Positions 21,592 through 63,500 of a DNA stretch of 64,000 nucleotides are shown piece after piece. The DNA comes from Phallusia mammillata. Lineage: Eukaryota. The translations under genes and the position numbers were made by a program. A model generated the notes under the pieces. The model was not told the DNA's origin and ran no database searches. It saw nothing but the letters and a program-made list of their open reading frames with translations. The stretch's first letter is position 1, and each line of letters starts with the position of its first letter. Location of the stretch: NCBI GenBank assembly GCA_965637545.1, contig OZ281497.1, forward strand, positions 10,602,001-10,666,000, given 5' to 3'.

Positions 21592-22010
21592 GGGTGACAC
21601 TAAAACGCTGAATGGGCGGGACGGGCGGGACGGGCGGGACGTCGCGGAAACCGTTAAATATCGGGTAAATTGCTGACGGTTAGTGCTATTAGGGTTGGGT
21701 TGAGGTTTTATAAAAGTATGTGAATCAAAAAATGTCCCTGCCTAAAACTTATTCAGCTGTTTCCTGACATTCAGCAAAAATGCTTGGGCGGGAAGTCTCC
21801 CTCGGCCGCTGAATGTTTCCCTCGGCCGCTGAATGTTTCGCTCGGTCGCGGAAGGTATCCGGGGGAATTATTTTTAATGATTTTCTATTATAAAACCTTA
21901 TCCCAACCTTAGTAGCACTAACTGTCAGCAATTTAACCCGATATTCAGCGGTTTTTACGACTTCCCGCCCATTCGGCCCGTCCCGCCCATTCAGCGTTTT
22001 AGTGTCACCC
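21592..22010. mobile_element. Palindromic MITE with ~150-bp TIRs, Merlin-like
   Basis: TIR begins gggtgacactaaaacgctgaatgggcgggac and ends ...cccgcccattcagcgttttagtgtcaccc; perfect 8-bp TSD attaaaat (21584-21591, 22011-22018). Internal gggcgggac x3 and a ~20-bp tandem pair. Superfamily inferred only from the GG termini and 8-bp TSD. Confidence 0.88.
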
Positions 22011-23783
22011 ATTAAAATTACAACAAAAACTACGCACTTATACAAGCGATGGGCGACAGGAAAAGGTCGGTTACTTATGGCAAGCTTTACGTAATCTCAA
22101 ATGGCGACAAACTCACGTTTCAGTCACAAACAACACTGAAATATCCGACGTATCTCCACGCCCAAATGCCATGTTCCTTTTATCATGAAAAGTTGTCCGA
22201 CGCCAATTTTTCCATAGCCTGGTGGTCGGCGACCTCACTATGGCTACATGTCACTGTTGATTTGCTTTGCAATCAGTGTTTGACAATGCTTCGCCAAAAC
22301 AAACACTGACTGTGGGTAAATAGTCGGAACACGGTGTTATGTCGAGCTTTGCGCCTTTCATATTGCCGATATAATGGCAAGGCGCCAAGATTCATTGCGT
22401 GTCAGTATTTCATGGCGTCGCTTTGCTCGCTAGCTATTGTCCACCTTTGGTAGCAAGACGGTGAATATTTGTTCTAACCGCCCTCGTTTTAATGGCGTTG
22501 CTTGTAACTAGTATTAACAGAATTACGAGCAAACGCGTTGCCACATGCAAAAATCGTTTACAACCATTTGGTCGAATTGTTTCCCCAATTTCACCATTTT
22601 CTTCTTTTGCTGTTAATTACAAATTATTGACATGTACCTATAAGTCGTTACCATCATGATGATTCCGAAGCAACCATTAGTAGAGAGGCCAGCAGCTTTT
22701 GCGCAAGCCAGCCGACTTTTTTAATGTCTTTAATTATTAGAAACCCCGATATTTTTCACTGGGCGCAGCAAATGTTTTGTTACATTTGGAGGAAACGATG
22801 GAAAACAATGCCTCTTTTTTATTCGACTTCCGCCGGGGAAGGATTCCCAATCGACAGCTTCCCGAAGTGGAGTGGCCCTCTCCAGGTAACGACTAGGCCA
22901 TCACTTGAAAATGTGTTTATCAATGGTATGAAGTGGCCACTCGGCGACAGCAGACAGAACACAGACACGGGACAGCCTTGTGTGCATTTCGGATGAAGGG
23001 ACATCGTTATCAGTGGATCGCAAACAAAACTAATATTTTGCAACCTCTTTCACCTTTTGCGCCGCGAGCAAACAGTCAAACGTGACATGCGAGAGATTGT
23101 ACCTCGCCTTTTTTCTTCAGGGTTCCTTTTTCATTTTTCTCTCGAAGGCCTTGGGAAATTACTTGGGAAAAGTGCAAACACGAGAGTTTGCGAGTTTGTT
23201 TGCGCGATCCATCCCCCCACCTATGCTATGACATCACAGTGACGCGGTGCCCTTTGCCACAAACGCAATTACTACCTTGTATCCCCATGGTAACGCTTAA
23301 TGATAATCTATTATCGCTGTTAGTTTAGCTAATATCATCCAGCGTTCATCCTTCATAAGCAAACTCATCTGGTTTAATTGTCGCCAAGGTGTTTGTTTCC
23401 AAAAGTCGTGATATTTCTCTTCACCCAAATGCGTCCAAGACCCTGGACATTGACGCAATCTGTTTTAAAGTTTTTGAGAAATCTTGACTGGTAACTTTGT
23501 TTCGTTTTTTTCTTTTGTGTACTCTTCACTGGTCGTAAACTATGCAGCATAATAACACACTTGTATTTTTGTGGAGAATATGCCAACAGGCTGTTTGCTC
23601 TTTTCTTTTTTGACGTGTTGGATTTTTTATTGGTTTTGTGACTGAGAAAAAAACGTTTTGCTTGCACACAGCAAATAAGTTTTGTTGAAAAATATGTTAA
23701 CTAGACACAAATTTTTAGATATGTTTCAAATGAATCTTACGAAATGTTTTTCATGTGTTTTTAATTACGACAATGCTCCATGA

Positions 23784-24344
23784 CAGGGGCGGGCAACTTC
23801 TCCAGTCGGCGGGCCGGATATGGGGAAATGAAGTACTTGGCGGGCCGGATTCCTGAATCGATATACATTAATCGCGTATTTATCCAGTGATTTAAAACGG
23901 ATTTTTGACCACCTAAACCACATACATTCAAGAACATCACAAATACAATACAGTCCAAACAATCTAACTGATATAACATAAAATTATTCGCCACAGCAAA
24001 TTTAATGCATACACCACAGACTTAGATACTGCTGAAACACTAACTAGGCTACACGTGTGGAAACAAAGGAAACAGTGAAAGCAGGCCACACGCAAGGTTG
24101 GCAGTTATGTCGTAACAATGGATGTATGGTGCGATGGTAACAACGGCGGGAAAGTTTTTTTGCTATTGGGGAGCGTTACTGACCGTTATAACTATAATTT
24201 GACGCAGTAAGCAAGTAGTGGGGGATTGCGGCAGACTGTGGCCGCGGGCCACATTATCATGTAAGACCTGAAACTGTCTGCGGGCCGCTCAAAATCCCGC
24301 CGCGGGCCGGATCCGGCCCGCGGGCCGTATGTTGCCCGCCCCTG
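23784..24344. mobile_element. Non-autonomous hAT (Charlie-like) MITE
   Basis: TIR caggggcgggcaac / gttgcccgcccctg; gcgggcc subterminal repeats; perfect 8-bp TSD ctccatga (23776-23783, 24345-24352). Confidence 0.95.
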
Positions 24345-24731
24345 CTCCATGAGAACAACGCTTTAAAAGTGACAACAACGTATAGCCAATTAAGCAATAA
24401 ATATGAAATTTTTTTGATCATATTTTAAAATCTTTGCAAAAAAATAACTTGTGCAAGTTTTGTTTCACAAATGAACTAAGTCGGAAGTGGCCCAACGTTT
24501 TACGACACTATTGATATTTACCATCCATTATACGAGCAAGGCGTGGATGATTTTCACTCTGTTGACTGATCGTGATGCTCAGAGCTCATAAAACTTTTGT
24601 TTGAGCAACTGTTTCTCCTTTTTAGTACCATTTTTCAGTTTTTTTTTCTCTTTTTTTCTCAGTGTGGGAAGTTTACTTTGATCTTCACCTTACAATGATA
24701 GTGATGAAGGTGCTTTACCAACATCAAACAG

Positions 24732-35594: not shown

Positions 35595-37223
35595 CCCTTT
35601 GAGGGACACACTTTTTTGTGCACTGCTTTTTTTAATTCAGTCAACAAATCTTAGTTAAAATGGGTCAAAAAAAGTATTCCCCTCAAAAAAAATTTGTAAT
35701 TTCTTAGTTTGTTTATTTTAGAGCATGGTACATATATGTACCAGCAACCATTTGGGAGAATTTTTTTTTGAAAAAAATTTTTTTTCAATTTTGGTGCAAA
35801 TCCATTTTTATAGTAAAAACTGTATTCAAGGATCACTGTAAGTAAACTCTGTTAACTAAAAACACTTGTATTCCATGTATTTGATTAGTAAATACAAAAC
35901 AACAAACAAAACCTAGTCAACAGCATACAAAAATGCCAGAAAAATTGTAAATGTAGAATAATGGTGCAGGTATTTCAACAATAGTTGTTGTCATTACCGG
36001 TGTAGGATTTCAGTTCAGTAAACTTAGCTTCACAAAAACATAGAGATGAAAAGGAAATGCTAGTTTTGTACGAAGAAATCATAGATAGCAAATGGTAACA
36101 GGTCACAAAAATTAAAATACAACCAAATCAAGCACAGAAACTTATTTTTCATGATAAAGTTTAAAGCATTTCCTATCCTTTGTACAACAAAAATATGTGT
36201 CACACTGGACATACTTGTTGTTGGTTCTGTTCTGAATCTTTTGACATGTGCAAAGCTTACACCTTTGTCTATTGTTGATTTTTTCAATTGTATTGACTTT
36301 GCTGGATCTTTTCTTGCAAATACTAGAATTGTGGCCCTTGAAATTTGATCACATGTTCATCAACAGAAGAAAATAGGACTGATAGAAATGATGAATTAAA
36401 ATCCTGTAGTACTGGCCTAATTTTAAAAGCCCTATCATACATTGGATCATTTCTCGGTTTCATATTTTCATTGTTGTTGAAGTTCAACTTGCTACTGATC
36501 TCTTCTAATCACTAGGACTTTGCTTTTTTTGCTACCGTACAATCAAGCATTGAACTGGCAGCAACAATTTAGAATCTTTTAGTAGAACCTTAACATCTTC
36601 TGCATCTAAAGCAAGATCATCTTCAGTGTCGCTAACATCAGCAAACAAAATTTCCTCCACAATGCTATATGTCAGTGGAAAAACTAACTTTTTGTTCCAG
36701 TCACTTTTGTTCTGAAATGTCTTAAAATACAAATAAAAAATACTAAAAACCTTAAATGTGCTGTTTTGTAGTTCTAATTGGACTTAAAAAACAAACAATA
36801 GCATTTTTCAACAAAACCGAAAATTTTGACTTTTTTTCCCCAAATGGACGGTGGTACATATATGTACCATAACATGTATGTCCAAAATTTTTACATTTTT
36901 ACTTGGGTTTTATTTTTTAAAACTAGTAATTATTGATAACCAACACATAAACAATAAAAAACGTTATCAGTCACTTGTTTTTATGTTTTTGTATACTTAC
37001 CAATAAGTGAAACAATTATGCCCTTGAGAATGACCGAAAACTGACTACTTTAAGGCACAAAAACAGCTGATCTGAAGGTGGCAAGTGCAAAAAAATCATA
37101 GAAATATGAACATTAAATCCAAATTGAGAGGTTGTGTGAAAATTATATCGATCGAACATCAAATTAATTTTCTACGACGCTTCAAAGTTGTGGTACATAT
37201 ATGTACCAGTAACCCTCAAAGGG
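35595..37223 (-). mobile_element. Internally deleted piggyBac DNA transposon
   Basis: TTAA on both sides and TIR ccctttgaggg / ccctcaaaggg. Minus-strand relics: acidic N-terminus (IVEEILFADVSDTEDDL), DPMYDRAFKIRPVLQDFN..SVDEHVIKFQG (first catalytic Asp region) and C-terminal RCKLCTC..QCDTYFCCTKDRKCFKLYH. Three copies of the palindrome tggtacatatatgtacca. Confidence 0.95.
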
Positions 37224-40200
37224 TTAAAGTATGGTAAATTTAGATTGCGTTATTCTGAAATTGGCAGACATGTCGTTGACTGTGGTTTTTGTGTGTTTTC
37301 TCGACTAAAGTTTAAACTTTCCGTTAAAAAACGGTACGTTGATTGCGTTTAATACTTTGGGCCGCATGATTTTATCCCCGGTTAAAAATCTTCAACGAGT
37401 GTTTGTTAAATTTTATTTTCTACTCGTTATTAAATCACTGAGATAGTTCGATATCCTTAGTTTAAAATCATATGCAAAGTTTGAGCGTATAACAAACCAC
37501 AACAAAATACTGGTTCGGACATTTCATTCCTATTCGTCGAATCAAACAACTAAAATAGTTAATTTGGTCAAGTTCGAAGACAGTATTCGTTCGAAACGCT
37601 TATGAGTCAGCAACTGTGGTTGGCCGATAATTCACAATATCATGGGATTAAATCCCACCGCATGACAGTTTCTTAGTTCATGTATTTCCACAGCGAAATG
37701 CTTGTAAAACCAATTTGTTTCGAAAAAAACACTTGCCTCAGATCTGGCGTATAACAATTTACACATATGCGTGTTGTTAATGTTGGTCAGCAAGAACGCT
37801 TAAAAACAGATCAACATAATAACTGATTTACTTTTTCAATTGTAAACCAAATAAACGAAGCAACTTATTATGTGCATAAAACTAATTTTGGAAGTCAACC
37901 CTACCTGGCCCTTACCACACACTATCATCCATATCGAACCCGTCATAGATCTTGCATCGATTACACAGCGCTCTTCTTGGTTCTTGCTATGTCACATTGC
38001 AAGTGGAGTTGACTTTCTCCCGGGAAGCGAGCCAAGCGCTAAACGTCAATAGCGGTTTGCGGCAGACTGATGTATTAACCAGGAATAAGATAAGTGAGCA
38101 GAGTTACCTCATGATTTTATTTCCGAACCCTGTGTTTCTTGTTAATTTTATACCCTCGTCTACTGGTTCACAAAGCGGAACAACAATGAGAGTCCTATCT
38201 TTTTTTGTGTGTGTGCAGTACAGAGTTCAATACGTGATTCAGTCTTGCAGGTTGCGCGCCGAACTTGTGACGTCATAATACCGGCTCTTGTTTTCGACTT
38301 GGTGCGGTCTTGATCGCTGATAAAAAAAGATGCTGCTATACTATGCCTCCTCACTCCACAAGTCGCCTACCACAGGCCGTGCAGTCGCATCTCCAAAGGT
38401 CAATTCACAAAACTTGTTCATGATGTTTTTGTATGAATCACGAAGCTTCCGATTCGGTAACCATATAAAAACCGTAGCATTGTAACATGCTGTTTTGAAT
38501 GTACGTCATAGTTTATTGAAGCAACAAAGATTGATGGAATGGGACATGCTGGCACCAACGTGGTGGCAAAATAAATAGTGTGTAAATCACGGATATTAAG
38601 AAACTTGGAAAAAATCGATTTAATTTGTCATCGTACAGTTTACGAATTTTTCTGTGACAGAGTTGTCAAACCGCGCATTACGAAAATGGATTCATGTGTT
38701 TTTTCCAAGGAATTACGCACCTTAAAATAACGCATCATAATCCGACATATGTAGTATGCGAATGTACTTTTAGATCTTCAAATGTCATGAAGTGTGATTG
38801 CGGTTACAATTTCTCCTGTTTCATTCGACTTTGATCGTGAACTTCGTGCACTGGCTACAAGTGACGAACTTCTACACCCAAATCATTGTACAAAATATGG
38901 ACCAAAAACACGATATTCTGCATGTCAATTGGAATTTAGAATAACGCCGCTAAGTTTCTTTTTGTTAACACGTTCGTCTTTTTGCTTTCACCGACACGTT
39001 AGACAAACTTTGCGACATGCAGCGAATTCTGTTGTTAACGGTTAATTCCAATGATACCTAGCTTTTAAGTTTTTTTTCCCCAATAGAATACTTCAATATT
39101 TGTCGTAAACAATGTGTCGTTAATTCATCTGTTGATTGCTCATAAACGTGTTATTTGGCAAACTGTTTTGTCATCGACGTGTTGGTTTAATCAATAACCA
39201 ACTTTAGTGCGTCATCAACATTTTTTCATTTGTTTCTTCGAAATGAATTAGATCTAATAGATAACTTGTCTAAATGAAATTTGACCTTTCGGAGCGTTGT
39301 GTTTTTTATTGTAACTTCATGAGCAGAAAACCAACACGTCACTCGTTTGTCGTTGAACAGTGACGTAAACGCGTCATGCTTTATCAATAGAAATCGTTAC
39401 AGTGCATTTTTTGTGCCACGCACTGATTTTGTGTATTTATTATGGCGATGCAGACTTTGTATAAACCGTGGTCTGCGGTTTTAAGTGTAATGTGTTCTTT
39501 ACTCCATTAAAACCATGTTAGCCGACCCATGATACACACCATCCTTGTTGATGCTGCAACCATCGACCTTAATGATAAGGGCGATGGGCTGTTATAGGCG
39601 CCTTGATTGTTTTTTGTACATTACCAACTTTAACCTTCGTCACTGAAAAGTCAATCAGTGTGTTATTGTGCACGGATTAAGCCTTTTAATTCGGAGTTTG
39701 CAAACTCTTTTAGTGCAAGTGTGGCGGTGTAATAAAAATGGATTATGCAAAAACATTAAAAGGCATGGAAGGTCAAACTTTAATTATATTTGAGCTTGAA
39801 GAATCAAAGCACAATTTTTCATGTAGTTGTATAAAGCGCAGTCAAAACTGCCAATCGATGGTTTGAAAACCGCGTGCGAAATAGTGTAAAAACAATAACA
39901 GTTTGATGTTTTCCGCGCATAGCCAAGTTGCGAGTGACGTCACAAGTGGTATAAAGTGGTGGGTTGCGTCGCATAAAATCGCTGTGTCATTTTTAGAAAC
40001 TTGTTATATTCGACCCATTAAAACAACCAGTATGCCACAATGTGATTCAATGACGTTGCCAGCATCATATTTATCTCGATTTAGCCTATCGAGTTTACTT
40101 TCTTTTATATTCCGATGGGAAATTATACATTTTGCTTCAAACCTGCTACCGATGCTTTGTTAAAATACAAAAGTACAGGATACAATCAAGCCACGCTTTG

Positions 40201-40622
40201 TTTACACACAAATTTGAATAATTCAGTATAATCGAGTGTCAAAACAAGCAGACAATGAGTATGTATTCGATTAGTCTTTTGACACATACACATAACTTTT
40301 GCTGCAATCCGACCACAGTGAAAGCTGAAAACACCATGTTGTAATCGTTTCATGAATGACGGCGCGCTATTATCTGTTTGTTGTCAAGCGTCTTGTTTCG
40401 CACAACTTATGAAAAGACGATCTGCCCAAGCGCCATTAGCATCAAGTTTAGCAGAAAAAAACGTCCACCAAAAGAGGCTAAGCTCTTTTCTTGCAGACGA
40501 TTTATAGCAGAGAGTGTGTGAATGCTTGGACCACCGTGGAAGATACAAGTTTGCCCACGCGATTTTGTGAATGGGTCGTTGTGTTGTTTCTCACCGAGCC
40601 GTATGTTTATCTTCACCTAGTC

Positions 40623-40797
40623 CAGTGGTTCTTAACCTTTTCGGTTTGGTTTCCCACTAAAGTAAATCACCAAGTTCGAATTTCCCCCTCTGTTATTCTT
40701 ATAATGATGTTTTGTGCCCAACATTAACAAAAAATATTCTTTAATCGAAAAATTTCCCTCTGAAAACATTAAATTTCCCACCGGTTAAGAACCACTG
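40623..40797. mobile_element. Short (175 bp) hAT MITE
   Basis: TIR cagtggttcttaacc / ggttaagaaccactg; perfect 8-bp TSD acctagtc (40615-40622, 40798-40805). Confidence 0.95.
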
Positions 40798-43700
40798 ACC
40801 TAGTCTATAGCCTGCTGTTGAAATATACATTGTGGTACGAACTCAAATGTCAAACCGTTTTTAAGAATTAGAAGCACTATAGTGTACTTAAACTTCAAAA
40901 ATAGTGGTGGTTCGGATGAGTTCGTGTCAAGCAAATATCAAAAACATAAAGTTTAATATATTATGAGAATGATATGCACGTGTGGATTAAAACAAAGCGT
41001 TCTGTGCTTTCCGGACCTATACAAAATGCAAATTTGTTTAATGTATTTTGTTTAAACAACATGATAATATTTGGGGGGAAATCGGAATTTTATGTAACAG
41101 GCTGTTTATGGAAAGCTGTATTATGGGGGCTGCATTTTTTCTTGAATCTCTAGTTGTAAATCGTAGAACGTAAATGTTGTACCTTTCATATAATATTTTA
41201 CAAGCACTTTGCCGTTGGATGCTGCCCAATTTGCTGGTGCCAAGCAAACTTCTTTGCAACTTGGAAACAGTGCGCTTCCATGCTTTGCATTTCCATTAAG
41301 TGCGTTTTGCAAAGAGCTGTAGTCCAACAAAAACGAGAGAAAAAAGAAAAAATATCGATTGTTTGGTCACGTCGGGTGCACCTGACCATGATTGTTGTCG
41401 TCGTCGAGGATGTTTGTTTCACACCTGTATCATTTCACGTTGCTTACTTCCGCCTCAACAAGGACCCATATCCCACGAGAGTCACCTGCCTGGCACCGAA
41501 CCGCCGTTCGACTTTCCCATTCCATAGCGCAGCTGCCTGGAATGCCTTTAAGTCATGGGAGACTGAAAGGTGATATTCCAACCCCTCCCGAACACTTTTG
41601 ATGACGTCATGCCGCTGTGACGCGACCGAGATGAAGTGGACATTTGGAATTTCTTGCGGTTTGCAATATGACGTTATACAGCAGGCGGGTTTCGTATTTC
41701 AAGCTTCTCGTTTTGTGCAAATCGTCGCAGTCCCAGCACTGAGGCGCGTAATTGGAATCGCGTGGCGCATTTTGTTTGCTATGTCTTCTTGAAATATCTG
41801 AGCGGGGAGTAAACAACTTTTAACAAAACCCTCCAACTCTATGCGAATTTTCAGACCATCGCATAAAGCAGATTTTATACATTTGAAATTGCTTGTGGAA
41901 CATTGTTGCGCAAAACGACTTTTGTGTTTCCTAACAACATACATAAATTACATCACATGTCATGTCTAGACATTACGTTTAAGTACAAACTTGACCTTGA
42001 ACAGTTAAGGAAATCATGCAACGGACCTCTTATGACAATACATTACATTAGGAGTGTTTGCATCAAGCATATAAAATAACGACGTTTTTCTTGCTGATCA
42101 AACTGATATCAGCCTACACAAATGGATTGCCCAAATTTTGTGGTCGACTCTGTTGCCATCACAATTACCTTGCCTTTGTTTTCGCACCAACCACAGTCCA
42201 TTAAGATAAGCCACACCGACCCTTGACTATCCCGGCCCGTTTGGCTCTCAGGTGTTTTCAACCTTCCGCAGGGCGACTCTTGTTTTGCCTGAGGGCTACA
42301 CTTTGGGATATCCGGGCCAATTCTTCGCGAACAATTGGCTCCTCGGCGGTCGGTGCCTATTTTGTGGTTGGTTTCATGTGGCGAATCCAGATACGATTGC
42401 TGTCATTTGATAAAAGTTAAAGCGGGCAACAGCAAGCAAGTCTCATTTTAGGAGTGGGACAGGAGAGTTTGTATTGGCTACAAATGCTTTGTGGTGGTGT
42501 TTTGAAGGAAGAGCTTTTAGACTCTCTGTTTGTTTGTTTATAATTCGGATTGGTTTCGCAAGTTTTCAGGCTGTAGATTTTTTATAGCATGGTGGTTTTA
42601 AATGAACTCTTCTGGATCCATTTTATTAATATGATATGATTAAATTTAATGTTGGACAAAATTGCATAATTACGTGCCAGGGAGCATTAATGTACATGTT
42701 ATATGTTCGTATTTATGACATATTAGATTCGTATTTATGACACTTAAGCATTTTTGGTTAGGAAATAGCGAACATACCGTGCGCGGTTTATACCGGTCAT
42801 GTGCGGATATTTCCTCTTAATTCTTAAGTATAGTATATTGGACGTTTGGCGCCGACTTAGCCTATAATTTTGGTTTGTAGAAACATGCTATATTGGTATT
42901 AGCCGAATGTCATCCATAATTTTATTCCTCCGGCCGAGTTTAATTGTTCATATCCGCTTCATAGGCATTTGCGTGTATATTAACGGCTTTGGTTACACGA
43001 TCGTGGTTGTTCGAGAAGAAAACGCAGGCTGATGAGGTTCGGCCAATAGCAGCAACTTGTCGGTTTGCATTTAGACAGGATTAAAATGGATTGCAAGTAG
43101 AGGTGATTTGCCCGCAAAAGCATGAGTTATGTATTTTACAAATACGGATTCAAACAATAGTAGTAGATTTGTGTAGGTTTGTCATGTATGCGGAATCATA
43201 GCAGAATCCTAAAGTTTACTGAACCAGCTCAAAACCGTCTAAATCTGAAACTTTTGCGTTCGATCAGTGACGGAAACGTTGTGTTAACAGCCTGATTTGG
43301 TGAGAAAGATGCATCCGGCAGAAACGATCCAGTTACTTCAAGACAGGATGTTTCTTCTCCTTTACTAAGGAATTTCACTGATGCGTGACGTGTGTCATCC
43401 GGACGGTATGGTTCCACTTCACTAAGTTTTATCTTGTTTGTTACATTACACTGTTTTTGCAGTTAATTAACTAACAGCAGACCTAACCAGTTTCAAGTGC
43501 TACAGGGTATATTGATTACAACTAAAGCACTTTGGCATTGGTAACAACATAAATTGTTTTGAAACATCGATTCATGACTTATATTTAACCAAGAAAGCAA
43601 AAGTTACGATTTGACCTTAACTTGCAAGTATTTGTATCGTGAGACCCATTTATGTTAATATTGACTGTTCGCAGAACCATACGCCGGCAAGCCTTGTAAA

Positions 43701-46439
43701 GTTAGCCGCAAATATGATTACATTGGGGCATGTATAAGTTTATTTGACACTATAAACACAACATCTATTTCAGTTAATTAATTTGTTATTTATTTTCCTT
43801 CGCCCATACTTGTGGTAACGTAACTAGTTTATGTAACGTTGGGCTATTGATTGTGATCTCTGCTAGCCGAACTTAACTTTGCTATCGTTTACGGTCGTTC
43901 GCCAAACGCCGAGGTTAAACTGGTAACAGGTTACAGTGCGCACTATATTTAGACATTTACGCAATGCAGATCTGTAGAAAATGGAGGCTTCCGCGTTTCG
44001 AGTTTCGTTAAACAGCTGGCCTATAGTCCTTGGTTTCACAATACCAGAAACTAAGATCTGCTCTTGTTATGGTGCCTGTTAAGGATTTTTACCTTGCGGA
44101 CTGCAACTTTAGGTGTGATGAAAAAAGATCGTTATTTTTATAACACTATTATACGCTCAGTCCATAACATACTTTTTTACGAAGAAACAAAGACTTTGCT
44201 TATTGCTCCCGATATATACAAGTACGGGTATGGTACAAAATAAATCTATATTCCTAACGTTTTTAAAATAAATAAACTGAATTTACGTAACCTCAAAGCT
44301 AAAAAATAAAGTAACAAGGAACACATTACCATCAACGTTTTTAACATTTGGTAATGATCTTGCGTCTAAAAATACTGCAGCATGCAACGTGACTAAGGCT
44401 ACGTGCACAAGATGTTGTCGCTTATTGTGCATGATGTTTGATCACTATCCACTCGGTTGTAATCGCAAATGGGGTATTTAGTAAACATGTATGTCTGTCT
44501 TCGTATCTGGACGTGTAGTGCTTAAACACGTTTTTTCACATTTTGTGCTTATTGAAACTTTTACACAGAACGGTGCTTTTCAATCTTTTTGGCTTTTTGG
44601 ATGTTCAAACACACGAAAAGAAAATATAAACTCAGTGTCTTTATTTTATTATTTAATTCATTTAAACACTTTGTTAGCGTTTCAGTTTAAGTGGGAAGTA
44701 ATATTTCAAAATATGTGTTTTGCGAAAGGCAATGCCGTTCGTAATAAGAATTCCCGCAGAACGCTGCAATAACCCATTAGGCATACACCTTACAGCGGTA
44801 AACTGTTGGCAGAAATAAGAATTATATGTTAACAACTTTGATACGACTATGAGAAAGGTGGTTATAAAAATGATGACCAAGCAAAACCGTCTCAGCACCC
44901 AAACAATAGAAACATTCCAGAGTTTTTGTTCCCCATAATACCCGGTGTAGAGTAATCAGGACATTGTTGCCGTCATAGGGTGCTTACCACCTGTCAGATC
45001 TACAAGGTAAGGTCAGCCGTGTATGCGTTGCGCTGACCAATTTAGATGAAGAACAATAATCCGTTTAGCTAGAAAATCGGGACCTATTCATCGCTTGAAT
45101 AAACTTTGAGCGTTTAGGGTCCACGTGCGTAAAGCGAATGAGAAATGTTTTTACAAGAGTCTTGTCGTTGTTTTTCGTCCCCGGCCCCAGAAAAACACGG
45201 GCTCTCCCTGACTGGGCAGGTTTCCCTGACTAAATTGCGTGGAATTGACTGTGCAAATTACTCGTAGGAAAGTTTTGAGTGTATTTTTATCCTTTGCTTT
45301 CTTTAGTTTTTTCAGCACGCAAACCATAACCTTCAAGGGACCTATTTATTTTCGAACCATCGCTTGAACAGTAATGGCGATCACACGTACATTGTGCCAA
45401 GCAAAACACCGAGCAAACGTCCATAACCTACCCGTTTTGTCTCAAGTAGCAAGAATGTGGGTTTTTGGGGCTAGTTTAAAGGCTTTAGATTGTGTTTACC
45501 AATTCACGCACAAAATAGATTTCGTCTCTCTTCCTAGTAAACCAGTGATCAAACGATTGCTAAAAGAATCAGAATTTCATGCAAAACAATTCGATGATCG
45601 TCGTTGTAATCTTGTTTGTGTCGTCTCAAAGTGTCAGATGCGTCACTATAAGGTCGGGTTTTCACGTGTTGTAGCGCAAATTTTTTATGCTCTGTTGGAA
45701 CTAGGCTTTTCTCACCTCTCGGTTTGCCTGCTACACAACACATGCATGACATGTCATAATGAGGCAATGTGGCAATTTTTTGATTATCGACACCCCTGTG
45801 ACGCCATATATGCGCTACGTCACGCAAACGTTTATCTAATGGGTTGTTTTTCAAAAATGTCTAAAAAGGCAACTCATCGACAAAGGTGAATTGAAGTTGT
45901 AACGCAAAGAAACGTCACAACATCACGTGATGTTTTTGACTGCGCGGCTCGCCGAGAGAACGATAAGATGCAATCGATCAGGCGGCAATTTATGGGACCG
46001 TTGCACAAAATCACCCGGCGTCCCTTCTTTGGTGATCATTGTGGAGAAGCGAACCTGCGTTGTTATAGCAATGTGATTGTCGATAAGATGTCTTTATCAG
46101 TTGTCACTATAAACTCTGACCCAATGCAAACGTGTGAATGGTTGTTTTCAGCATGGTACTTCCAACATTTTGTGTTTTTTAATTAAGATTCAGTTCTAAG
46201 ACACTATTGGTGGATAAGGTTTATGGTAAACTAAAATACGTGTTATTTCTACTCCCAAAGAAAACTTTTTTGTTTTGTATTTTTCTCCACTATACAATGT
46301 TTTGTTTCGGCCTTGCACGATTTTGTCCAATTTACTAAAGTGATTGATGTAGGTTTGACCCACGTGTGTGAAACTTGAAAGGAGATGAGTAACATAGGCA
46401 TTTTGAAATCCACTCGAGCATTCAAATTCAGCTACGCCA

Positions 46440-47745
46440 AGGCACGATTCAAGCTGAAACTATGGGATGACTACGATGAACTAATTAAGTAAGATGTATT
46501 GGTTGGAGATTTCCGAGTTTGATTTTATTTGCTCAAGTGATCCCTACGGTCAGAATAGTTAAAAATAATTGGGTACTATTTTATGTGGTCATCAAGTAGA
46601 TGAATCCAAACGGCGTCAGTTCCAAAACATAAAAATAGTTAACAAGTTCCGAAAGTATGATAGTGCAGTCTGACCTTTAAGACTTTCTCATTCCCAAGAA
46701 TAAAAAAATTGATGTAATCCTTTCTTTCAGAGTTGCACGCGGGCCCGAAATTTGGGCCCGAACCCGTCCCGAACCCGGCCCGAACCCGAAAGTATAAGCC
46801 CGAAGCCCGGGCCGAAGCCGAAACGTTTTTGCAAAGCCCGTTTAGGCCCGAAATTTTGATTGGCAGGCCTATCCACGACAAAGGATGAGAAAGAAAAAAG
46901 AGAAAGACAACAAACACAATGAACAATAGTAGACAATGGGGTAAACAATACGTTTTAGAGGAGGGTGGGCATTAGGTCAAAGCCAGAGAATTGTTACTTA
47001 GCTGAGTGATTATATTTAAAAAACAATGGCGGACATGGAACGTAAAGTCAGGCCCGTTTTAAGCCCGTTTTCTCACAAATACCTAAGCCCGAACCCGGCC
47101 CGAACCCGGCCCGAACCCGGCCCGAACCCGAACCCTGCCCGAAAAGCCCGGCCCGACTTGCAACTCTGCTTTCTTTCCTATACAATCCAAGCGTTGTGAA
47201 ATTCAAAAAAAAAATGATTCGCTGTTCATTCTACGGTTGCGATTTTCTCTCGAACTTGAATCACTTTCTGCATCCGAAACTCCGCGTTCCAGCTGGGATA
47301 TTGTCCACAGCTTTGTAGTGACGCAATTCGGTGGCAAAAGAATAGCATTTCAAGGGAATTTCGTTTCATATGGGCCCATTTCTCTTACGATTTCCTGAAT
47401 GGCACCTTTTCCTTCATACGATTTGGATTGACATTTCACTTGGAAGTCAAATGAACGTGATATGGACTTTATTACTTTTGTGTTGTCCTCTGACATGTGC
47501 TTCATGTAGAAAAATATGTTTCCCATTGCACTGGTTCCGCATATTGCGTTTTTAGCAGCGCCCAGATTGCAACTTCTCACAATGTTGGTATCAAAGAGTG
47601 ATTGTATTGACCAATATAGGAAATTCCGATGACACGGTGCAATGCTCATCTGAGCAGTATCTTCCGCTTCTGGGAACCTATTTTGCCACCAAAATAACTG
47701 CGCCTGTCGGCCAAACGGCCAGCTTGCGCGAGTTCTTGGATACAC
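46440..47745 (-). pseudogene. Possible decayed ZP (zona pellucida) domain gene interrupted by the hAT MITE
   Basis: Minus-strand fragments in ZP order: YCSDEHCTVS; NAICGTSAMGNIFFY...ISRSFDFQVKCQ (ZP-N-like CGT...ISR...F..C); after the MITE, LCFGTDA...YPIIFN..D and HSFSL (ZP-C-like). Stops and frameshifts present; no obvious introns. Confidence 0.4.
46728..47168. mobile_element. Non-autonomous hAT MITE with cccgaacccgg subterminal arrays
   Basis: TIR cagagttgca / tgcaactctg; perfect 8-bp TSD ctttcttt (46720-46727, 47169-47176). Confidence 0.95.
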
Positions 47746-52285: not shown

Positions 52286-54187
52286 CCGACTTTACGAGTG
52301 CATAACCACACGGCAATGTGAGATCCCCGAGTCCTAGGCGCCAACGACACGTCCCAGACCGCTGGTGTGCATTTCTCTGGTGGGCTTAGCCGACAAAGGG
52401 AGAGACGATCCGCAATGCGATTGTGGCGTGTCGTTGTCCTTCTGAACGTTGCGCTAATGAGTACAGCCAGCATGCATCGCATTTGGTTCAGTTTTACTGG
52501 CGCCCAAATAACTTCAAGTAGCTGCAAAGGACTCATTTTTCTCCCAAGAATCCGGAAATTCGTTTCGGTTTCACGTTTTTGTTCTGATTGCTCATCGGGA
52601 CTGAATTACGTACGCTCGGAGTTATTTGTAGATTGCCGAGTTCAACTGTGTACTAGAACACGATGACCACGTGGGAACTGCAACTCTAGACTTGTCCGAC
52701 TCGTGACGTCAACACAACGTAACATCATGTAGCACAGTGATGACGAATTTGTGTGGACATATGATTTCAATCACATTACACATGTGCAACTTTCATTACA
52801 AATGAATGATTCAACAAATACGATGCGAAACACAAAATTTTCAAAAAATCTGTACCTTTAAAGTTATTAAGATTGTTCACATTTTGCTGTTTTAGTGGAA
52901 ACGCTGGGTTAATTAATAAAACAGCTTCGTTAATATAACAAACGTACTTCCGAAAAATCTGCGTTTATGAGATAAATACTCTTGCATTCACACACAAACC
53001 AAACATTTAAAATATAAAAAATCGAAATTAACATGCGTTATATTTGGTTGAAACATTACAAAGTTAAACTTGGGGTTAGAATAAAGTTAATAGGAGGATT
53101 ACTAGTCCCTATTTTCAAACGAACCCTTCGTTAACGTCAATGCAGCCCGCAATGGTATATCCAGTGATTTGTAATGTTTCCACTTGTCGAGGCAACGCGA
53201 AAAAAAGGCGGCTCGCCTTATAAACCCAACGAACCTAGGCTTTAACATCAGTAATCGACTGGCGGTCTCTAAACGCAAGGAGATCTCAGGGCTGATAGCC
53301 TGTGTTCTCTTATAAGAAAGTTTTTAAAACTTGCGTTGATGTTGCAGACTTTGTGATTGGATTTAATCGTTAAAATTATAGCACACGAAAATTGTTGTAG
53401 ATTATAGTCAAGGTACAACTGATCAAAGGATCAGGAAAAATTCCGGGATTTGCCGAAAACATGTGTTAGTGATTGGGCAGAATCGCCCGTAGTGTACTCG
53501 ATGTATCGGCTCATTGCCTTAAAGCTTGAAAAAAGCTTTTCGAGTAAACAAATTGAATCGTGACCGAAAACTGAAAGGCGATTTCCCGCATGAAACTTAT
53601 TTTCGGAAATAAAAATAAAGATTGCCCATTGTCAGAGGCGGATCTGTTTTCAGTCAGCCAAACGCTTGAACACTAGAAATAATACCGGGTGTTGACTTAG
53701 ACGCAGGCTCTGTTGATACGCTTGAGGAAGACCGGTGCTTGTGAGCGGCATCTAAGCCGCCGCCGCTGCAGTTGTTGATACTCGCTTAGTGGTCTGTGAA
53801 GGAGTGTGTACAAGTTTCGTTCAGACGATGCGAAGAGAAGCATCAAGCTGATCCCGCAAGATTTGGCCTAGGCGCTCTGGGCGATGAGATTATTATGACC
53901 GCTTTTATTCGTTTGAGCAATACGGCGAGCACAGAGCACACCTTGTCAGCAAAGCGCGACGGTCCGAATGGGGGTTCGGAAGCGCGCGAATGTTACGCTA
54001 GAGCTGAGTTCAAGAATAGATCATGACAACATAGGATGAACAGCACCCAGCAGACTCCTTGAAAAGCGTTCATTGTTATGTGCTTGGCTTCCGGCCTAGC
54101 TTGAGCGAAACGATCGATTTGACCTTGACGGCTCGATTTACCTAGATCGTTTTCATCTTAACCATAATGTTTTCTTTTTTATCGCAG

Positions 54188-54542
54188 ACGCATAAGCGAC
54201 ATACAATAACGAACAAATAAGCGTCTATATTTGTGAAGACTGTCAAAACAAAAAATACGACAGCCTAAAGAAGACGAAAAAACGACGTGTAAATCCTATT
54301 TATTGGAATTAAGAGAGGCTCTGAAACATTAAAGCACGTCGAGATTTTGCCAAGTTTACGGAACCTGTCGCACTGACGGCGTTGGGCAAGTTTCAAGCAT
54401 CGTCAAGATAAGATCGATTGGTCGGCAGGGCGCCGAACAAAGAAGCAACTGTTGTCGGGCGTCTCGAAGCTACGGCACACGTTTTTGTCCTTTATTTTTA
54501 TTTATCGCTATTTAATCCACACTCACATCGCCTTATTTATCA
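54188..54542 (+). other. ADAMTS 5' UTR portion of the first coding exon, preceded by a strong splice acceptor (cis or SL trans-splice)
   Basis: Branch-like cttaac at ~54157 and tgttttcttttttatcgcag acceptor (AG 54186-54187). No ATG in the 355 nt before the signal-peptide ATG at 54543. Confidence 0.65.
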
Positions 54543-57500
54543 ATGGCTCTTGGGAGACATCGACTCGTTTGCGCCACATTGGCCGCATTTTACTTCTCAT
54601 TTCTGGCAGATGCCACCACGATGGAACGACGACACGGTAAGTGAATGTCGCTGTACTAAAACTGTAAACGCTTTTACAATAATTAGCAACTAAATCTTGA
54701 AAGATGTCTGCTATACACAAGGCACAATTTGAAGTAACCGTGTAAACAGACAATCGCACACACCCACCTGTCAGCGGAACACAATAAAAGTGATTTGCGC
54801 CAAGCGGTTTAGCCAGATTTTTTATGGGTTCTTGTCGTTGACGCATTCACTACGAACCTTCACGTTGATTTCTTATATCGTGCGCTTCTTGGCGATAAAT
54901 TTGTTATTTCCTATAGGATGGCAAAACGATTTATTGTGGCAATGTACTGCTACATGAATTGTCCACAGCGCAGCTGTCATTCTGTCTCGATTTTCCCGAA
55001 CACAGAAACCGTACAGCTTGTACCGATCGAGTAGGCTTCGTCAATATTTATTCAAACGACTTGTGACTTGATTTAACATGCTCGCTTCGGCTCTGCATGT
55101 TTCTTTCCTTACTTCAGCTCTTTCGAGGGTTGGGCGATTTTACGGCGCACCAGGGTATTTTTCCTACTTGCCGATAGTTCCGCAAATGCCTCCTTGGCAA
55201 TTGAAACTTTTTTACACCTTTTTTTGTTATGTTTACAATATAATGTAAATAGTCACTAGTCACTTTGTTAATGTTTAAACTTTAAACTACCGATTTCACC
55301 AATCGCTTTGCGTTAATTAAGAACAAAATTTTAACATTAAACATTCACGTGATTAGGTTGTACAAGAGATTATCGCGTTTGTGTGTAGATCGGCGACAAT
55401 TAACAAACTATTTTGGTACCTTTGATAAACATCGTGTATAAACAACCTCCACTGAGCACCAATGCGGCGCGTTTAATCCATTGTGCGGCTTAGCTACCGT
55501 TGTAGGCTGTACAATTGTGTTCGTGCTTTCCAATGGCCTTATCAAGATGCCCGTGAATAGCCTTGTGTAAATTTTAACTTCCTTTAGGCCGACTTTCGTC
55601 ACGCACTGTAGAAATTAAAGTGCTTGATCGGATTAGTTATGACAAATTTTGCTCCATGTGCGATTTTCAATGGGAATTAGTTGCAGTTGTCTGTTCGCAT
55701 TTCCACCTCTGAACCCATGATTTATGTTAAGGCGGTGTTAAGTCAAAGTCGAATAATCCCCAAGTAATTGCATCATTACCTTTTACCGGAACTAATTCCG
55801 TCCCCCTTTTTTGTGTTTCTTATGGGAATTTAACACCGGAGCAGAAAAGTTTGTGAAAACCCTCGAAGTGCTGGGCGCCGGCGGGAATTTCGAAACAGTA
55901 GTCACCGTCACACCAACGCGCGTCACCAGGTCTGGAGACTTCCTCGAATACGCTTCACTCTCGCCACTTTCCATCCACGAGGGAGCGAAAAAACTGCGGC
56001 GTCGGCGGAGTTTGGACGCCCGAGATGTCCGGGAAGAGTTGGACGCAGCATCGGCCACAGCCGAGGGCGACCACGAAGTGTTTTTCGATTTGGGAGACGC
56101 GCCCGGTACACCACTATCTGGCGCAAGACTCCACCTAAAGAGAAACTATAAGTTGGTTTCGAGAAACTTTTTGGTCGAGGAGCGGTCACGGGGTGGAAAG
56201 ATTGTGGGCAGACACAGCCTTGTGGAGGATTGTCATTACAAGGGTGTGATCCACAATCACGACAGCTTCTCAAAAGTAGCCCTGAGTCTTTGCAATGGCC
56301 TGGTAAGTGGTCCACACTTGACATGTTCTTGCGATGAATGCGTACATATATTTATGCGAATTTTCGATCTACAGCAAGGTGTGATCGTCCGCGATGACGA
56401 CACGTTTTTTATCGAGCCAGCGTGGAATCACACAACGACAAACTCATCGAACGGTGACACCCAATCTGAGGGCGGGCATCCCCACGTAATCTTAAAGCGC
56501 TCTGTCCTAGAGCACTTAAAAGAACGACGAGAAAACGAAGACGACTTGGGACACTGCGGATATTCAGGTGAGGAGAGATTTAAATAAAGAAACTTCGTAA
56601 AAGTCTTGTAGAAACCCTAAATCATGATTTTGTACAGACAAAGTTGCTGGAGAGACACCGTGGTGGAAAATTGATCCGCGTGAGCCAACCAAGAAGAATG
56701 AAAAACAAGACGAGGAAGATACGTCGTCGCAAAAACATCACCATCATCGTCACGCCAACCACCGCACAAGCGCTGGCCGCTCCGCTGCGGAAGAGGAGGA
56801 GGTTGATGCTTCCGAACCGGACATGGAAAAGAGCAGGAGACGACGATCCGTGAGCGTGGAACGTCACGTGGAAGTTATGGTTGTTGCCGACAAGATGATG
56901 GTTGGATTTCACGGACGCAAGGATGTAGAGAAATACATTCTAACCATCATGAACATTGTAAGTGGACACATAACATACACTCTTTTTTAAAAAGAGCATT
57001 GTATAAATCGTGTGTTATCTTTTCACCAGGTCAGCAACCTGTATCATGACTCGAGTATTGGCAACGCGGTGAACATTGTCGTCACAAGGGTCGTTCTGTT
57101 GACAGAAGACCAGGTAAGCAAAAATCACGTGATATTGCTTCACTCAAAGCGGTGTTGTTCCGTGTCTATAAGGGCACCCAAAAACAATGCATGTCCGTAT
57201 GTGGCTGTACACTGTCGTCTATTGTCTTCGAAAGAGAAACGAACGGTGTTAAGGGCGATGCGGGTGTTCCTCGGCATTTGTACCACACGATAAGGGGGCT
57301 ATAAGACGCGAGCCACGACGATAACACGAACACACAAACCACAATGGAGGGTAAGGCGATACCTAGAGCAGTAGCCAACATTGAGTGGAGCCGCTACTAC
57401 AGGCCTGAGCTATCATTAGCGCTGATAAGAGACCGACTTAGACAAACTAATTGTTCTCTGATGGTTTGTTTTTGCCTTGTTTGCCCTCTCTGTTTACCGG

Positions 57501-60500
57501 CACGTTAAAATTCCCAGGGCATAGCAAGCATTCCGTCGCGAGCGCAATGATGTCCCTTCGTGACGTCAGGTGGAACGCGCGACCCAAAGAAAAGGTCGTT
57601 CAGGCGATTTTTGCAACAAACATCTCGTGCGTTGGGCTCGCAAATAATTTTTTACAAAGCCAGATCGCTATAGTTGTTGCCAAACACACGAAGGAAGTGA
57701 GTCACGGCGAAATAAAACTTCCTGCGTATATCCATATAAGATCACGCCGGTCTTTAGCAGAAAACGAATGCGCCCTGAACTTTGTTGACTGTGCGAGATT
57801 GCTATGATTTATCATACGAGTCACGAAATATCCATGTATTTTTGCTTGAGGCTCGCCAAGCACCATTGACTGCTAACGGCGATTTTAGGTGTTTCACACG
57901 CAATGGTTTGAGAAACTTAAGGAATTGTTTGTCCCGCATGTTTACAGCGATTTGCTCGTATCGTCAGGCGCGATACGAAATCGGTACCAGGAATAGGTGA
58001 CTTCCAGTAAAGGCCGCATTTAATCGACTGAACGTGAGACGGATTAAGGCTTTCTTGTGATCGCCGTACATAAACATAAGTCAGCTTGCGGCATCGTGTG
58101 GCCTGCATCATTTTGACCATGTTTGGTGCAGCGCAATGTCCACAGGGTGTGCCAGGCAATCCAGTGGTTTCATTGAGAAACGTTGTAGGCAACGATAACA
58201 GCTTCAATCGCAAGGCGATAAAACTTGCAAGCATCTGTTTGTAGCGCTCTTAACGACACTGATCTACACCACCGCGCAATGGGGCATGCATGCCGCGGTC
58301 CATTAAGGTCCATATAGCCAACATGCCACCTTGCAACATCGCCCTAACGTTAAGGTTTGGATAAAACACTTTGCAATCTATAGCGATGTGATAAGGTATC
58401 TTATTTGTTGCGACTGTTCGGGTCTGTTCCCACGTGGTCGCCACGTTCGCACAGGACCAACTACGCAAACCGGCGTGTCACATTTCAATTGCTGCGTGTC
58501 GAGTTCACAGCAAGGTCGAGGGGCAGTGCCACTCATACAGGCACGCCTTGCATTTACCGCCTTTAGACTGGCAAATGGCGTATATCAAATGCATGCGGGC
58601 GGCAGTGATTTCTCCAGGTGACAGTAGTCGAAGTCGCGAATAGGAGCCAAGGAAAACCATCAGAAGATCGACAGGCCCACTTCAAAGTTCCCTTGCCCTT
58701 TTGAAAGCGCAGTGCCTGGTCCTCAAGAGACTCGCGCTGCTTTCTCGCTATGGAAGCTATTTTCCCACGCTCGTAAATAAACGTGCCGTTTTACAAATTC
58801 CATTTCGAAACCAATGGGTCCCCTAAAGTCAGTTTTAAACTGTTTCCTTGAGTAGTACTAACCGATGTTTTGTTAATTGCAGCCTGGATTGGAGATAAAC
58901 CATCACGCAGATCAATCCTTAAACAGTTTCTGCAGATGGCAATCCGACATCAACGTCAATGAATCCACAGGCTCATCCGATTTTGGCCTTGCTCATCATG
59001 ACAACGCTATTCTGATTACAGGGTAAGTTATTAGTTCATTATTTTTTTTGCCACACATTCATATTTGCCAGACCTGTTGCAACATTTACGAAAAAAGGTT
59101 TGTGTTTGTGGGATTTGATTGCGCTTGATCAACGTGTTGTGTATGCACAACAGGCTTTAATGAGACCCCGCCGGCTGTTATTGCCCCTTGGGGTGTTTGC
59201 ATTTGATAACAGTCAACTCGTTTATTGTCATAACCTTGGACCCGCTTTCGCTATGTCGACACAATTGTTTGCAAACCGTCTGTCGCCTTCGCTACTGCAC
59301 AAATTAAGAAATAGCCTTTTTAGCAACAGTTCAATGTACCACTCTCCGTGGGAGCGCAGGTGCAGGAAAAAGCTAAAGTAACTAAAGCGTCACCTAAGCT
59401 TGGGTGACGTGATGGTCTATATTGAGCCTCGCACTGTCTTAACAATCCGAAGCGACTGTAGCATATCAGGCGTGACCACACGGACCCCAGGCTTCAACCC
59501 TTGATTTTAGCACTTCCATTCAAAATTTGTCTCTCAGGATTGGAAACGAAACACTCTAAAGAGTGGGTTTCGTGAGAACCAGGTTACGGGTCGTTGGTCA
59601 TCTGTAGGGACGCCGGTTGACGTCATAGGACAACCGTGACAGGCAACGTGCCGGTCGTCAAGCTCGATTGCCTTTGTCGATGCTTGATCTGTGTGTGATA
59701 GCAGCCAAAATAGAAGCCTTGCGTTTTATTTACTTTTTCCGTACCACTGAGATCACTTATAGCGGGTTGCCTGCAATTTGAGCGCCCCGGTCGGCTTAGA
59801 ATCTTTGCACCAACGCCTTTAGACTTGCTCATGTGCCCTGTAATCATCGCTTTGATGGCAAGGTGCGGAATATCGCATCTTGGCAGGACGACAATGGCGA
59901 TCACTGTGCGCATCAAAACGAAGCAAATTCTCCATATCCGGCTGTAGATCCTGCTGGTGATACCTCACACCATGTGAGGATTAGGAACGTTGTTATAAAT
60001 GTGCGCCCTGTCTATTTCACAAACCGTGTACAGCTGTTTATCAAAAACACTATAATGTATCCCAGTTTCGCCTCTGTAGTTGAATTCCAGTCCACAACCA
60101 GTAACAGCCAGAAGAATTTTTAAAATTTTAAGCATTTGTTGCGGTGGCCTCCTTAAAAAATTCAGGCTAGAGCGCGAATGTCTCAGTATGCTATGAATTC
60201 CGACCGAGTTTCCTTCAGGCCACTTCAATATCATGAGGCGCCTGTTTCCCATCAAAAATGACGGATGTTGATCACTGGTTCACTAAGTATTATAAGAATT
60301 TCACAAGAAACCTTTACGAAAGCCACGGATTGATGTATATTTATTTTAACCACACCATAGAATAAATGTACTCACTTCTGGAAAATAGGAGGTTAAGTTC
60401 GTTTCAGGATCCAAAACAAACCCGCCCCCTCTGGACTATAATACCGTGTTTGGCATCGCACACAGAAGCCTTGTAGATCAAAGGGCCCGAATGTTCAAGT

Positions 60501-63500
60501 TAGTCGCTTTGGCCCTCACAAAACGCAGGCCATCATAACATACCCGCAATATCGTTTGCCGGCATTCAGTGCCAACTTTGCCTGCACCGGCAGTTGAACA
60601 GACACATGACCCGCTTTTTGACGTGCACTGTTATTCCCTGCACGTCTCAACTACAAGCATTTGCGTATTTACAAAGCTGTTGCAATATCGTATTCATGCT
60701 TGATCAATGACATACTTTCGTTTCAATAAGCCGTGACTTACAGCTGATCTTGCTTTCGTAGGTACGACATCTGCACCTACAGGAATCAACCGTGTGGCAC
60801 ACTCGGTAAGTAAAAGTTAAGATGTGTTTTTGCATTTAATAGGATATTTGGAAATAATTGAGATCCTATTCTACCGCTGGTTGTCTCGCGAACTTCCTTT
60901 TCGTGGAAAGCATTGACTCGTTTAGCTTCTTCCAATGCCCTTAGGCGTATTGGTCATTTTGTCTCTAAATTTTGTTGATATCAGGAAATTGATCACTGTC
61001 TGTTCATAATCAGCGAAATTTCACCTCAATAATGTTTCAAATACGTTTATCATGATGGTTACATCGTTTGCTTACAAAAACATAGCTCAATTGCGTAATA
61101 CACAACTATAAATTAGTTCTAAACAGGCGATCATTGCCCCGCAGAGTAGAGCACTCACGCAAAGCTTCATAGGTAAAGAGCTTTTGTTCGCACGGACGAA
61201 GTTTGGCGCTGTAAAACCCTTTTGGGGACGACGCGTGTGTATTCTGGGCCTTCGCTTCCGCCCTGTTCTATGGACCGCACGCGCGTCAAGGACCTTTTCA
61301 TTCGGTCCTTGATTGTCGAAGAACGCAGATAGGGGCGGGCGGTTGCTTTTATCACGCAACGGGCCAAAGCAAACTCTTGCTCATTGAACCTTCGCGTTAG
61401 GCCATTGTCGACTGGAACAACACCGAATACGTCATACCTGTGTCACGCCTCAGTTACCCCGCGCCTTACAGCTAGAATCGACCATTAGGGAACTTGGTTA
61501 TCCAGAAAACGTATTCATATAAGAATAACACCAGATCTTCGCTTGTTGAAACTGAATATGTTTGTTTAAGGTTTGGCGCCTGTGTCTGGGATGTGCGAGC
61601 ATATGAGGAGCTGCAGCATCAACGAAGACATTGGACTGGCATCCGCCTTCACCATTGCACACGAAATCGGACACAAGTGAGTACAACTTTTTGCTACAAC
61701 ATTTGAATACGGAATAGCAACACGCTTAGGCTGTTGCCCGCGAATTTGTCGGTATGTACGTGGTTAATGGTAATTATTACACGCAATTTTGACTTGGCCA
61801 ACCAAATCCAATTAATGCCACTTAACATAATAAGTAGGTTGAAGATTTGTCTCGCTAGACTTTTTTTGCTAAACATACCCGTTTCAACTTGGGTAAAGAG
61901 GTATGGGAGTTTTCTGAGCGTTTGGCGTCTAGACTTTCCTTCCCAGAATTGAGTGTTTGTGCAGCAGTTAACGCGCGCGAAAGACGAATGAGCGCTGAAA
62001 TCTAAACAGTTCTGCCATTTGTGATCTTGTGTTGGTGTCGTGAACCAGCTTTAATCCCAACGCTTACGCTGTTGAAAACACTACGGCTGTTTTCGATCGA
62101 ACTAAGTTGACAAATTTAAGAGGCTGAACTGACAGACGACCTTGCCTTCTGTCGTCAACTTGAAGATTGTCTTTTTAACGACCTGATCTGTACTATAGCG
62201 CCGCTAGTGGTGATTGTAATGCTTGGAGGCAAAAAGTTAAATCAAAACAGGGGATTTTTTAGTGTTTACACAGCAGTGATTGAATCGTGTAGTTACGCCT
62301 CACAGGGCGTTAATCCATTTGGTTTGAGCTCGTTTGTAAACGTCGCGCCCCACACGCAGTTTTGGAGCTGCACTCATGCAGTTTCGCTTCTGTGTAATCC
62401 CATCAGCACACAGAGATAGATCGAAAACATCCATCACATCGAGTACTGTATAGTCTCGAAGGGCTTACTTTGGAAATGTTATGTTTGTATATTTGAAAAC
62501 TTTACACTGGCGTCTATGTTTAGTTTTGGCATGAACCACGACGGAACCGGCAACGAATGCGGTCCAGGAAACGGTCAACCATCCAAGATCATGGCGCCGC
62601 AAATGACCACAAACACAAGTCCCTTTATGTGGTCCAGATGCTCTAAAAAATACATTACCGACTTCTTGGAGTAAGTGTCTCAGTACATAAAAGAATGATT
62701 AGTGTATTTTTTTCAATATGATAACAATGTGCTTTTTACTTTAGCTCCGGTGCAGGCAATTGCCTCGTCGACTCGCCACCATCAAGGGACTTTAACTTCC
62801 CTGAAGAAATGCCTGGCCAGTTGCATGATGCCGATGAGCAATGTCGATTCCAGTATGGTGCACAGTCCAAACAATGCCGTTATGGGGTAAGCACTTGTGA
62901 AAATTTCAACATGGTCAAAAACAATCCTCTAAAATCCGGCAACAGTGTTCGAGAAATGTATGCTTTGTTTCCGTACCCCGGGGAACGAGTATCTAATGTA
63001 ACCCACTGTTTCGTTCATAAACAAATCTAATGGGGCATTGGCCTCATGTCCCTGGTAGACAAGATCTAGGTGACTGATTATACGCGCTTAAAAAACGCGC
63101 TTGGAATTTAACGGGCTTTACCGCAAAATGCACATCTTGATTGGCACACAATGCAAATGGAGTAATTAATGGAAAAACTGTCTGCCTTATCACATAACAG
63201 TAATCCACCGGTGGAACTTATCTCGTTTTCTCTACGTCATTTCATAGTTCGCTGCCTTCGAACTTCGCACCTACGCACGCCAAACTGGGTGGTCTAAACC
63301 GCCGGACTAACTTCCGAACTTAAGGTCAACCGTAATGTTGAAAGTTGGGCTATCCAGGCCAGTGAGTTTAGTCGACGACAAACACTGGGCGACCACCCAC
63401 ATATATTTGCCAAAACTTTTATTGGCACTTCAGCTGCATTTATTTGGTAGTCATCGACCAAGTATAGTTTCAAGCCTTATTAATTAGCGGAAATCGCTAG

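Follow-up and report, generated by a model that had tools for sequence, protein, structure and literature searches.

Genomic setting of the element

Within a window of 64,000 nucleotides from the Phallusia mammillata genome (the whole stretch of contig OZ281497.1 analysed here), the 187-nt element at 42186-42372 on the + strand is predicted to fold into a three-way junction. This raises the question of whether the element encodes a discrete RNA or is a piece of DNA for which the fold is incidental. Its GC content is 54%, against approximately 39% in its surroundings. In the scanned genome (240 Mb, 312 contigs), the whole element matches one place, as does each of its halves, in a DNA search that skips very common words.

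The element lies in a gap of approximately 46 kb without a recognisable exon, because none of the 254 open frames of at least 55 amino acids between 5.6 and 52.5 kb passes the Pfam cut-off (three gave weak hits). The nearest gene downstream is the following:

52322-64000, + strand: ADAMTS metalloprotease gene, start exon inferred

Pfam places a Reprolysin propeptide domain and ADAMTS domains at 55.8 and 62.7 kb. The ADAMTS exons run from 55.8 kb, and the element lies approximately 10 kb upstream of the inferred first exon. We take the gene to be ADAMTS6/10, and exon-like frames at 0.5-5.4 kb, which have no Pfam hit, resemble WDR70. A GDNF-like gene in the gap, considered on grounds of synteny, was rejected, as no fitting cysteine motif was present. 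No tRNA was found anywhere in the 64-kb window. Literature searches, which cannot be made by sequence, listed no title or abstract on the locus. A 10-base direct repeat (42135-42144 and 42359-42368) flanks most of the element and overlaps two TGTGGT motifs. Elsewhere in the gap are two repeat pieces. The one at 35845-36678, covered by sequencing runs guessed to be RNA, weakly matches a transposase domain (PF13843, E 0.0075), and the one at 45368-45889 is an open frame of 173 codons that gave no Pfam hit.

Predicted fold of the element

The five helices and the alternative pairing proposed in the preliminary description are listed here together with what the present analysis adds to them:

42186-42195, + strand: 5′ arm of P1, carrying a − strand TGTGGT motif at 42190-42195
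42363-42372, + strand: 3′ arm of P1, carrying a TGTGGT motif at 42363-42368
42214-42221 with 42348-42355, + strand: P2, which closes the junction in the predicted fold
42228-42310, + strand: P3/P4 long arm, with roughly the shape of a pre-miRNA and z −2.9 when folded alone
42315-42340, + strand: P5 hairpin, paired in the predicted fold
42234-42239 with 42313-42318, + strand: alternative 6-bp helix, complementary but not populated

All five helices were recovered at their proposed positions with their proposed pairs, including three G-U pairs in P4 and one in P5. Their pair probabilities of 0.69-1.0 indicate that they dominate the predicted ensemble, in which G-U pairs make up 11 of the 66 pairs. 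The predicted energy of the + strand is −72.2 kcal/mol, corresponding to z = −4.60 (none of 200 shuffles was equally stable) and to z = −4.24 in a separate set of 100 shuffles. The − strand folds less well (z = −2.59), and the two flanks of the element, with z values of +0.2 and +0.3, are unfolded.

The same description read the alternative helix as a switch or pseudoknot, and this part was not confirmed. The probability of the pairing is 0.0, and forcing it gives −65.5 versus −72.2 kcal/mol, a cost of 6.7 kcal/mol. Its 3′ strand (42313-42318) shares bases with the 5′ strand of P5, so that the pairing cannot form a pseudoknot on the fold and makes a poor switch. The folding model, then, bears out the helices as predicted structure, but not the switch.

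Comparison of the fold with chance

The null model likewise picked the best closed fold of 150-200 nt from each shuffle. None of 166 such boundary-matched shuffles reached −4.24, the best being −4.01 (119 were scored, and 47 contained no closed fold of 150-200 nt). The fold thus exceeds chance at its own locus.

Comparison across the window gave a different picture. Among 251 non-overlapping local folds of at least 150 nt, 40 were shuffled; 9 of these 40 had z ≤ −4.0 and 5 had z ≤ −4.6. The strong folds include 56089-56275, which lies inside an ADAMTS coding exon, and several folds stronger than the element coincide with repeats. When bounded automatically (42183-42381), the element had a z of only −3.2, rank 25 of 40, and in a windowed z scan it fell outside the top 30 clusters. 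In a composition-corrected sliding scan, the boundaries of the preliminary description ranked 2 of 1597, whereas the on-grid window over the element reached only −2.5. Judged as the strongest candidate out of 64 kb, the fold is not clearly beyond chance, and the folding score by itself fails to set the element apart from other stretches of the window. According to PMC1570369, z scores from single sequences are poorer than those from sequence pairs at telling real RNAs apart from controls.

With a per-locus p of approximately 0.01 and approximately 250 loci, we infer that at least one such chance fold per window is to be allowed for. This counts towards the view that the element is unconstrained or decayed sequence, perhaps what is left of an ancient repeat, with a fold that arose by chance and with the contigs described below as random amplified fragments. 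We regard this explanation as unlikely on the whole, but it deserves serious consideration.

Two side observations concern other folds. MITE-type inverted-repeat elements occur in the window at 5591-5924, 19295-19590, 21578-22024, 24296-24347 and 46744-47149, several of which match or surpass the element in folding. A 200-nt local fold at 6785-6984 (z −4.8) lies outside the listed repeats.

Copies and relatives of the element

A multi-copy decayed MITE had been named beforehand as the finding that would speak against a novel RNA, and what we found instead was a single-copy element. Like MITEs, it has perfect 10-base inverted ends around approximately 170 bases; unlike them, it is present once, lacks a target-site duplication adjoining P1 in the inspected sequence, and has a branched rather than rod-like interior. 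Sequences with the ends of P1 separated by 155-180 bases occur at two places in the genome, with unrelated interiors. The other place is a 184-base stretch (L046, G000:C1:12726551-12726734) that carries the 10-base inverted ends of P1 around an AT-rich interior. The existence of this second place, similar in spacing, fits chance or decay, whereas the absence of a further copy of the whole or of either half, in a search that passes over very common words, and of a target-site duplication speaks against it.

Searching 97 kb with a model derived solely from the element revealed no second copy, and metagenome scans with two patterns returned no match. Nine loci from the viral scan were dismissed as chance, since none exceeded 12.1 bits with the element model (the pattern sites scored 3.5-8.8). 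No orthologue of the element was therefore found in the metagenome and viral scans.

Searches for known RNA classes

Searching the window with the Rfam 15 covariance models, a check suggested in the preliminary description, gave no hits (criterion: gathering score or E ≤ 10). Between 41500 and 43000, three sub-threshold hits were seen, none overlapping the element. The genome does contain U2, U6, U1, 7SK, RNase MRP and vault RNAs at other places, with vault RNA at seven loci and 7SK at two. The snRNA-type genes share a promoter element with a CAAAC core at −53 (U1, U2) or −59/−60 (U6, 7SK). A species-specific promoter matrix was built from seven real promoters, which scored 6.7-21.9 bits in leave-one-out. 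The best match upstream of the fold on the + strand scored 3.8 bits (rank 324). The other match near the element was the following:

42484-42499, − strand: weak snRNA promoter match of 9.5 bits, 27th in the window, whereas the better fold is on the + strand

We found no box A or box B in the element, and T4 runs lie inside the fold on the + strand at 42255, 42283 and 42360. Vault RNAs, Y RNAs and 7SK resemble the element in that their ends pair into a terminal stem. They differ from it in that the element lacks box A/B, the snRNA promoter element and an Rfam match, and contains internal T4 runs. The element does not qualify as a Pol III transcript of the vault, Y or tRNA-like type.

Ribozyme and snoRNA-like features were inspected by their motifs. 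In agreement with the earlier statement that there is no hammerhead core, CTGANGA was absent from both strands, and a single TCCTCG, as in HDV-like ribozymes, had no flanking P3 pairing by inspection. The + strand of the element contains neither an Sm site nor a C box. The H/ACA layout is incomplete: there is an ACA after P4 and a box resembling H at 42204, without a 5′ hairpin (z −0.9), and a 144-nt H/ACA candidate folds at z +0.8.

The long arm could alternatively be a microRNA hairpin, P3/P4, cut by Drosha and Dicer from a primary transcript. Its arm of approximately 35 nt per side, its 13-bp core and a precursor of approximately 60 nt are suited to this, but it has no Rfam miRNA match, its stem, interrupted by a 4x3 U-rich loop and branched at the top, reaches a z of only −2.6 to −2.9, and the hairpin is embedded in a junction instead of single-stranded flanks. 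Both the H/ACA and the miRNA layout thus fit only in part, and we consider a microRNA highly improbable. Likenesses to seeds of the miR-96/182 type, in the 5′ arm of P4 and at 43531-43552, were discarded, having no Rfam hit; 43531-43552 does not fold (z −0.6).

Telomerase RNA was considered because of the topology of its CR4/5 domain. The telomere repeat is TTAGGG at 8 of the 11 contig ends read, and CCCTAA, as expected of a template, was absent from both strands of 39001-45000. As far as CR4/5 is described in the accessible part of PMC8480181, the likeness is one of topology alone: a closing stem, a long arm and a short arm on the 3′ side. The element differs in lacking a TTAGGG template (39-45 kb), a small loop of the P6.1 type and an H box directly after the stem. 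Its short arm has 8-9 bp and a 10-nt loop, and the 78 nt downstream fold at z +0.31. A telomerase RNA would be recognised by its template and by a CR4/5 domain that carries P6.1 and is accompanied by H/ACA on the 3′ side, and neither is present. A stretch at 42084-42097, which resembles the telomerase pseudoknot loop, was dropped, there being no template. The same part of PMC8480181 names no ascidian telomerase RNA.

Coverage of the element in sequencing runs

The element is present in 13 of the 24 listed runs, 7 large and 6 small, none of which is on record as RNA. The six small runs come from two studies, are guessed to be DNA, amount to 4-16 million contig letters each and hold a share of 0.34-0.57 of the query words. 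That six runs from two studies hold the element argues against chance or decay. In two of them, X8 and X10, isolated contigs cover the element:

42166-42407, strand not assigned: isolated contigs of two small runs, X10 at 42166-42381 (depth 7.5) and X8 at 42178-42407 (depth 4.1)

Neither contig differs from the element in sequence. In each of these runs, the single 216-230-base contig on the element is the sole unique piece in 19.9 kb (33-52.9 kb), a region otherwise represented by repeat pieces alone. Equally GC-rich stretches at 41420, 49860 and 52260 are uncovered in X8 and X10, so that GC bias alone was rejected as the source of the contigs, and restriction-fragment libraries were rejected on inspection, as the contig ends match no common site. 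Random fragments of 200-300 bases would yield shares of this size at p 0.04-0.12, a level that fits chance or decay. Because the small runs were picked for holding the query, with shares computed among the holders only, and because of these p values, the pattern can be taken as a hint only that the contigs resemble an enrichment peak or a short transcript. Two further runs, guessed to be RNA, cover neither the element nor any unique exon in 33-52.9 kb and were excluded from the evidence.

The limits of the contigs bear on another explanation, in which the GC content and the folding would follow from exonic nature:

42169-42399, − strand: candidate 231-nt exon, a 77-codon open frame between splice-like sites, without a homologue

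Such an unannotated exon (42399-42169), coding or non-coding, has a donor-like site that ranks 12th or better among the 2815 GT sites of the − strand in the gap, an acceptor in the top tenth and 77 open codons in phase 0, by general splice-site weights rather than ones trained on this genome, and its limits lie near those of the contigs. Nevertheless, the − strand of the gap contains 12 such site pairs, the frame has no homologue among longer proteins and no Pfam hit, the other candidates yield no coherent gene, and the X8 contig extends, unspliced, 8 bases beyond the acceptor. We consider this exon very unlikely.

A structured RNA as a possible explanation

The novel non-coding RNA originally proposed stands as a predicted three-way junction, whereas the switch has been set aside and nothing shows a discrete RNA. 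The discrete RNA finds no support because the element has no family match, no small-RNA promoter of the type used in this genome, no ribozyme core and, in the metagenome and viral scans, no orthologue in which covariation could be sought. It could nonetheless be an uncatalogued, non-polyadenylated structured RNA of approximately 190-240 nt, transcribed from the + strand, whose three-way junction would serve as a scaffold for proteins. Such an RNA would either have a Pol II promoter that lacks the snRNA element or be processed out of a longer transcript. The well-defined ensemble (z −4.2 to −4.6, the + strand better than the −, 11/66 G-U), the unstructured flanks, the gene-like single copy and the ends of the X8 and X10 contigs, 8-35 bases from those of the fold, are consistent with this. 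On the other side, no Rfam match or known type of promoter or terminator was found, the + strand lacks an Sm site, a C box and a two-hairpin H/ACA layout, and z drops to −2.82 across the 242-nt span that the contigs cover, which come from small runs guessed to be DNA.

From the predicted fold, we consider such an RNA doubtful. The same holds for its broader form, namely a new tunicate RNA class outside Rfam or an enhancer that is itself transcribed into an RNA with a defined scaffold fold. The balance is thus against a function as RNA. If there were one, it would add a class to the non-coding RNAs of a lineage in which little is known of them; the available portion of a tunicate survey (PMC5006418) reports that telomerase, vault and Y RNAs were not found by homology.

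A proposed distal regulatory element as the best explanation

The explanation we prefer, at a probability of approximately 0.4, is that the single-copy, GC-rich, non-coding island is a distal DNA regulatory element of the enhancer type, with the ADAMTS gene 10 kb downstream probably as its target. Short GC-rich sites, clustered in the element and some of them inverted, would be bound by transcription factors, the bound factors would keep approximately 200 bases accessible, and the accessible element would act on the neighbouring promoter. P1 is an inverted pair of TGTGGT motifs, and since inverted GC-rich sites let one strand fold well on paper, no RNA would be needed. The motifs concerned are the following:

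42139, 42190, 42363 and 42490, strand not assigned: four TGTGGT (RUNX-type) motifs spanning 42139-42495

The accessible text of PMC2952845 gives the RUNX core as TGTGG. Four motifs in 357 bases form the densest TGTGGT cluster of the window, yet the window-wide p is 0.195.

The part of 10.1101/371005 available to us, a study unconnected to the runs above, reports ascidian open-chromatin peaks with a median of 123-219 bp that occupy approximately 1% of the genome and exceed the rest of the non-exonic DNA in GC content. The element resembles the distal cis-regulatory elements described there in its size of approximately 200 bp, in its GC excess, and in being single-copy and intergenic near a developmental gene. 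It is non-coding and present once, with the size and GC content of accessible elements, as an enhancer would be. Accessible elements are not described as folding in that part of the study.

The absence of a small-RNA promoter of this genome's kinds and the presence of equally good folds in other stretches count for an enhancer; the near-unit helix probabilities, the better fold of the + strand, the 0/166 shuffles and the unfolded flanks count against it. The main weakness of the enhancer reading is that binding sites explain P1 and leave P2-P5 to chance. As an enhancer, the element would be ordinary, one of thousands. The locus is small and single-copy and would be cheap to test for either an enhancer or an RNA.

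Small-RNA genes elsewhere in the genome

The genome-wide searches also located several small-RNA genes of separate interest. The vault RNA genes (L031-L034, G000:C2:13.95 Mb and C1:3.45-3.94 Mb) gave seven matches above the Rfam cut-off, unlike the survey of another tunicate, which, in the part available (PMC5006418), did not find vault RNA. The two 7SK genes, L021 (G000:C6:2406082-2406400) and L022 (G000:C5:11482709-11483048), are clearly diverged and lie on separate chromosomes; both have the promoter element, a TATA-like box and, as terminator, a T-run. U1 and U2 alternate in a tandem array at G000:C6:6.46-6.53 Mb (L004-L010, L018-L020) with a unit of approximately 1005 bases, and U6 forms a separate array on C5, of approximately 1316 bases.
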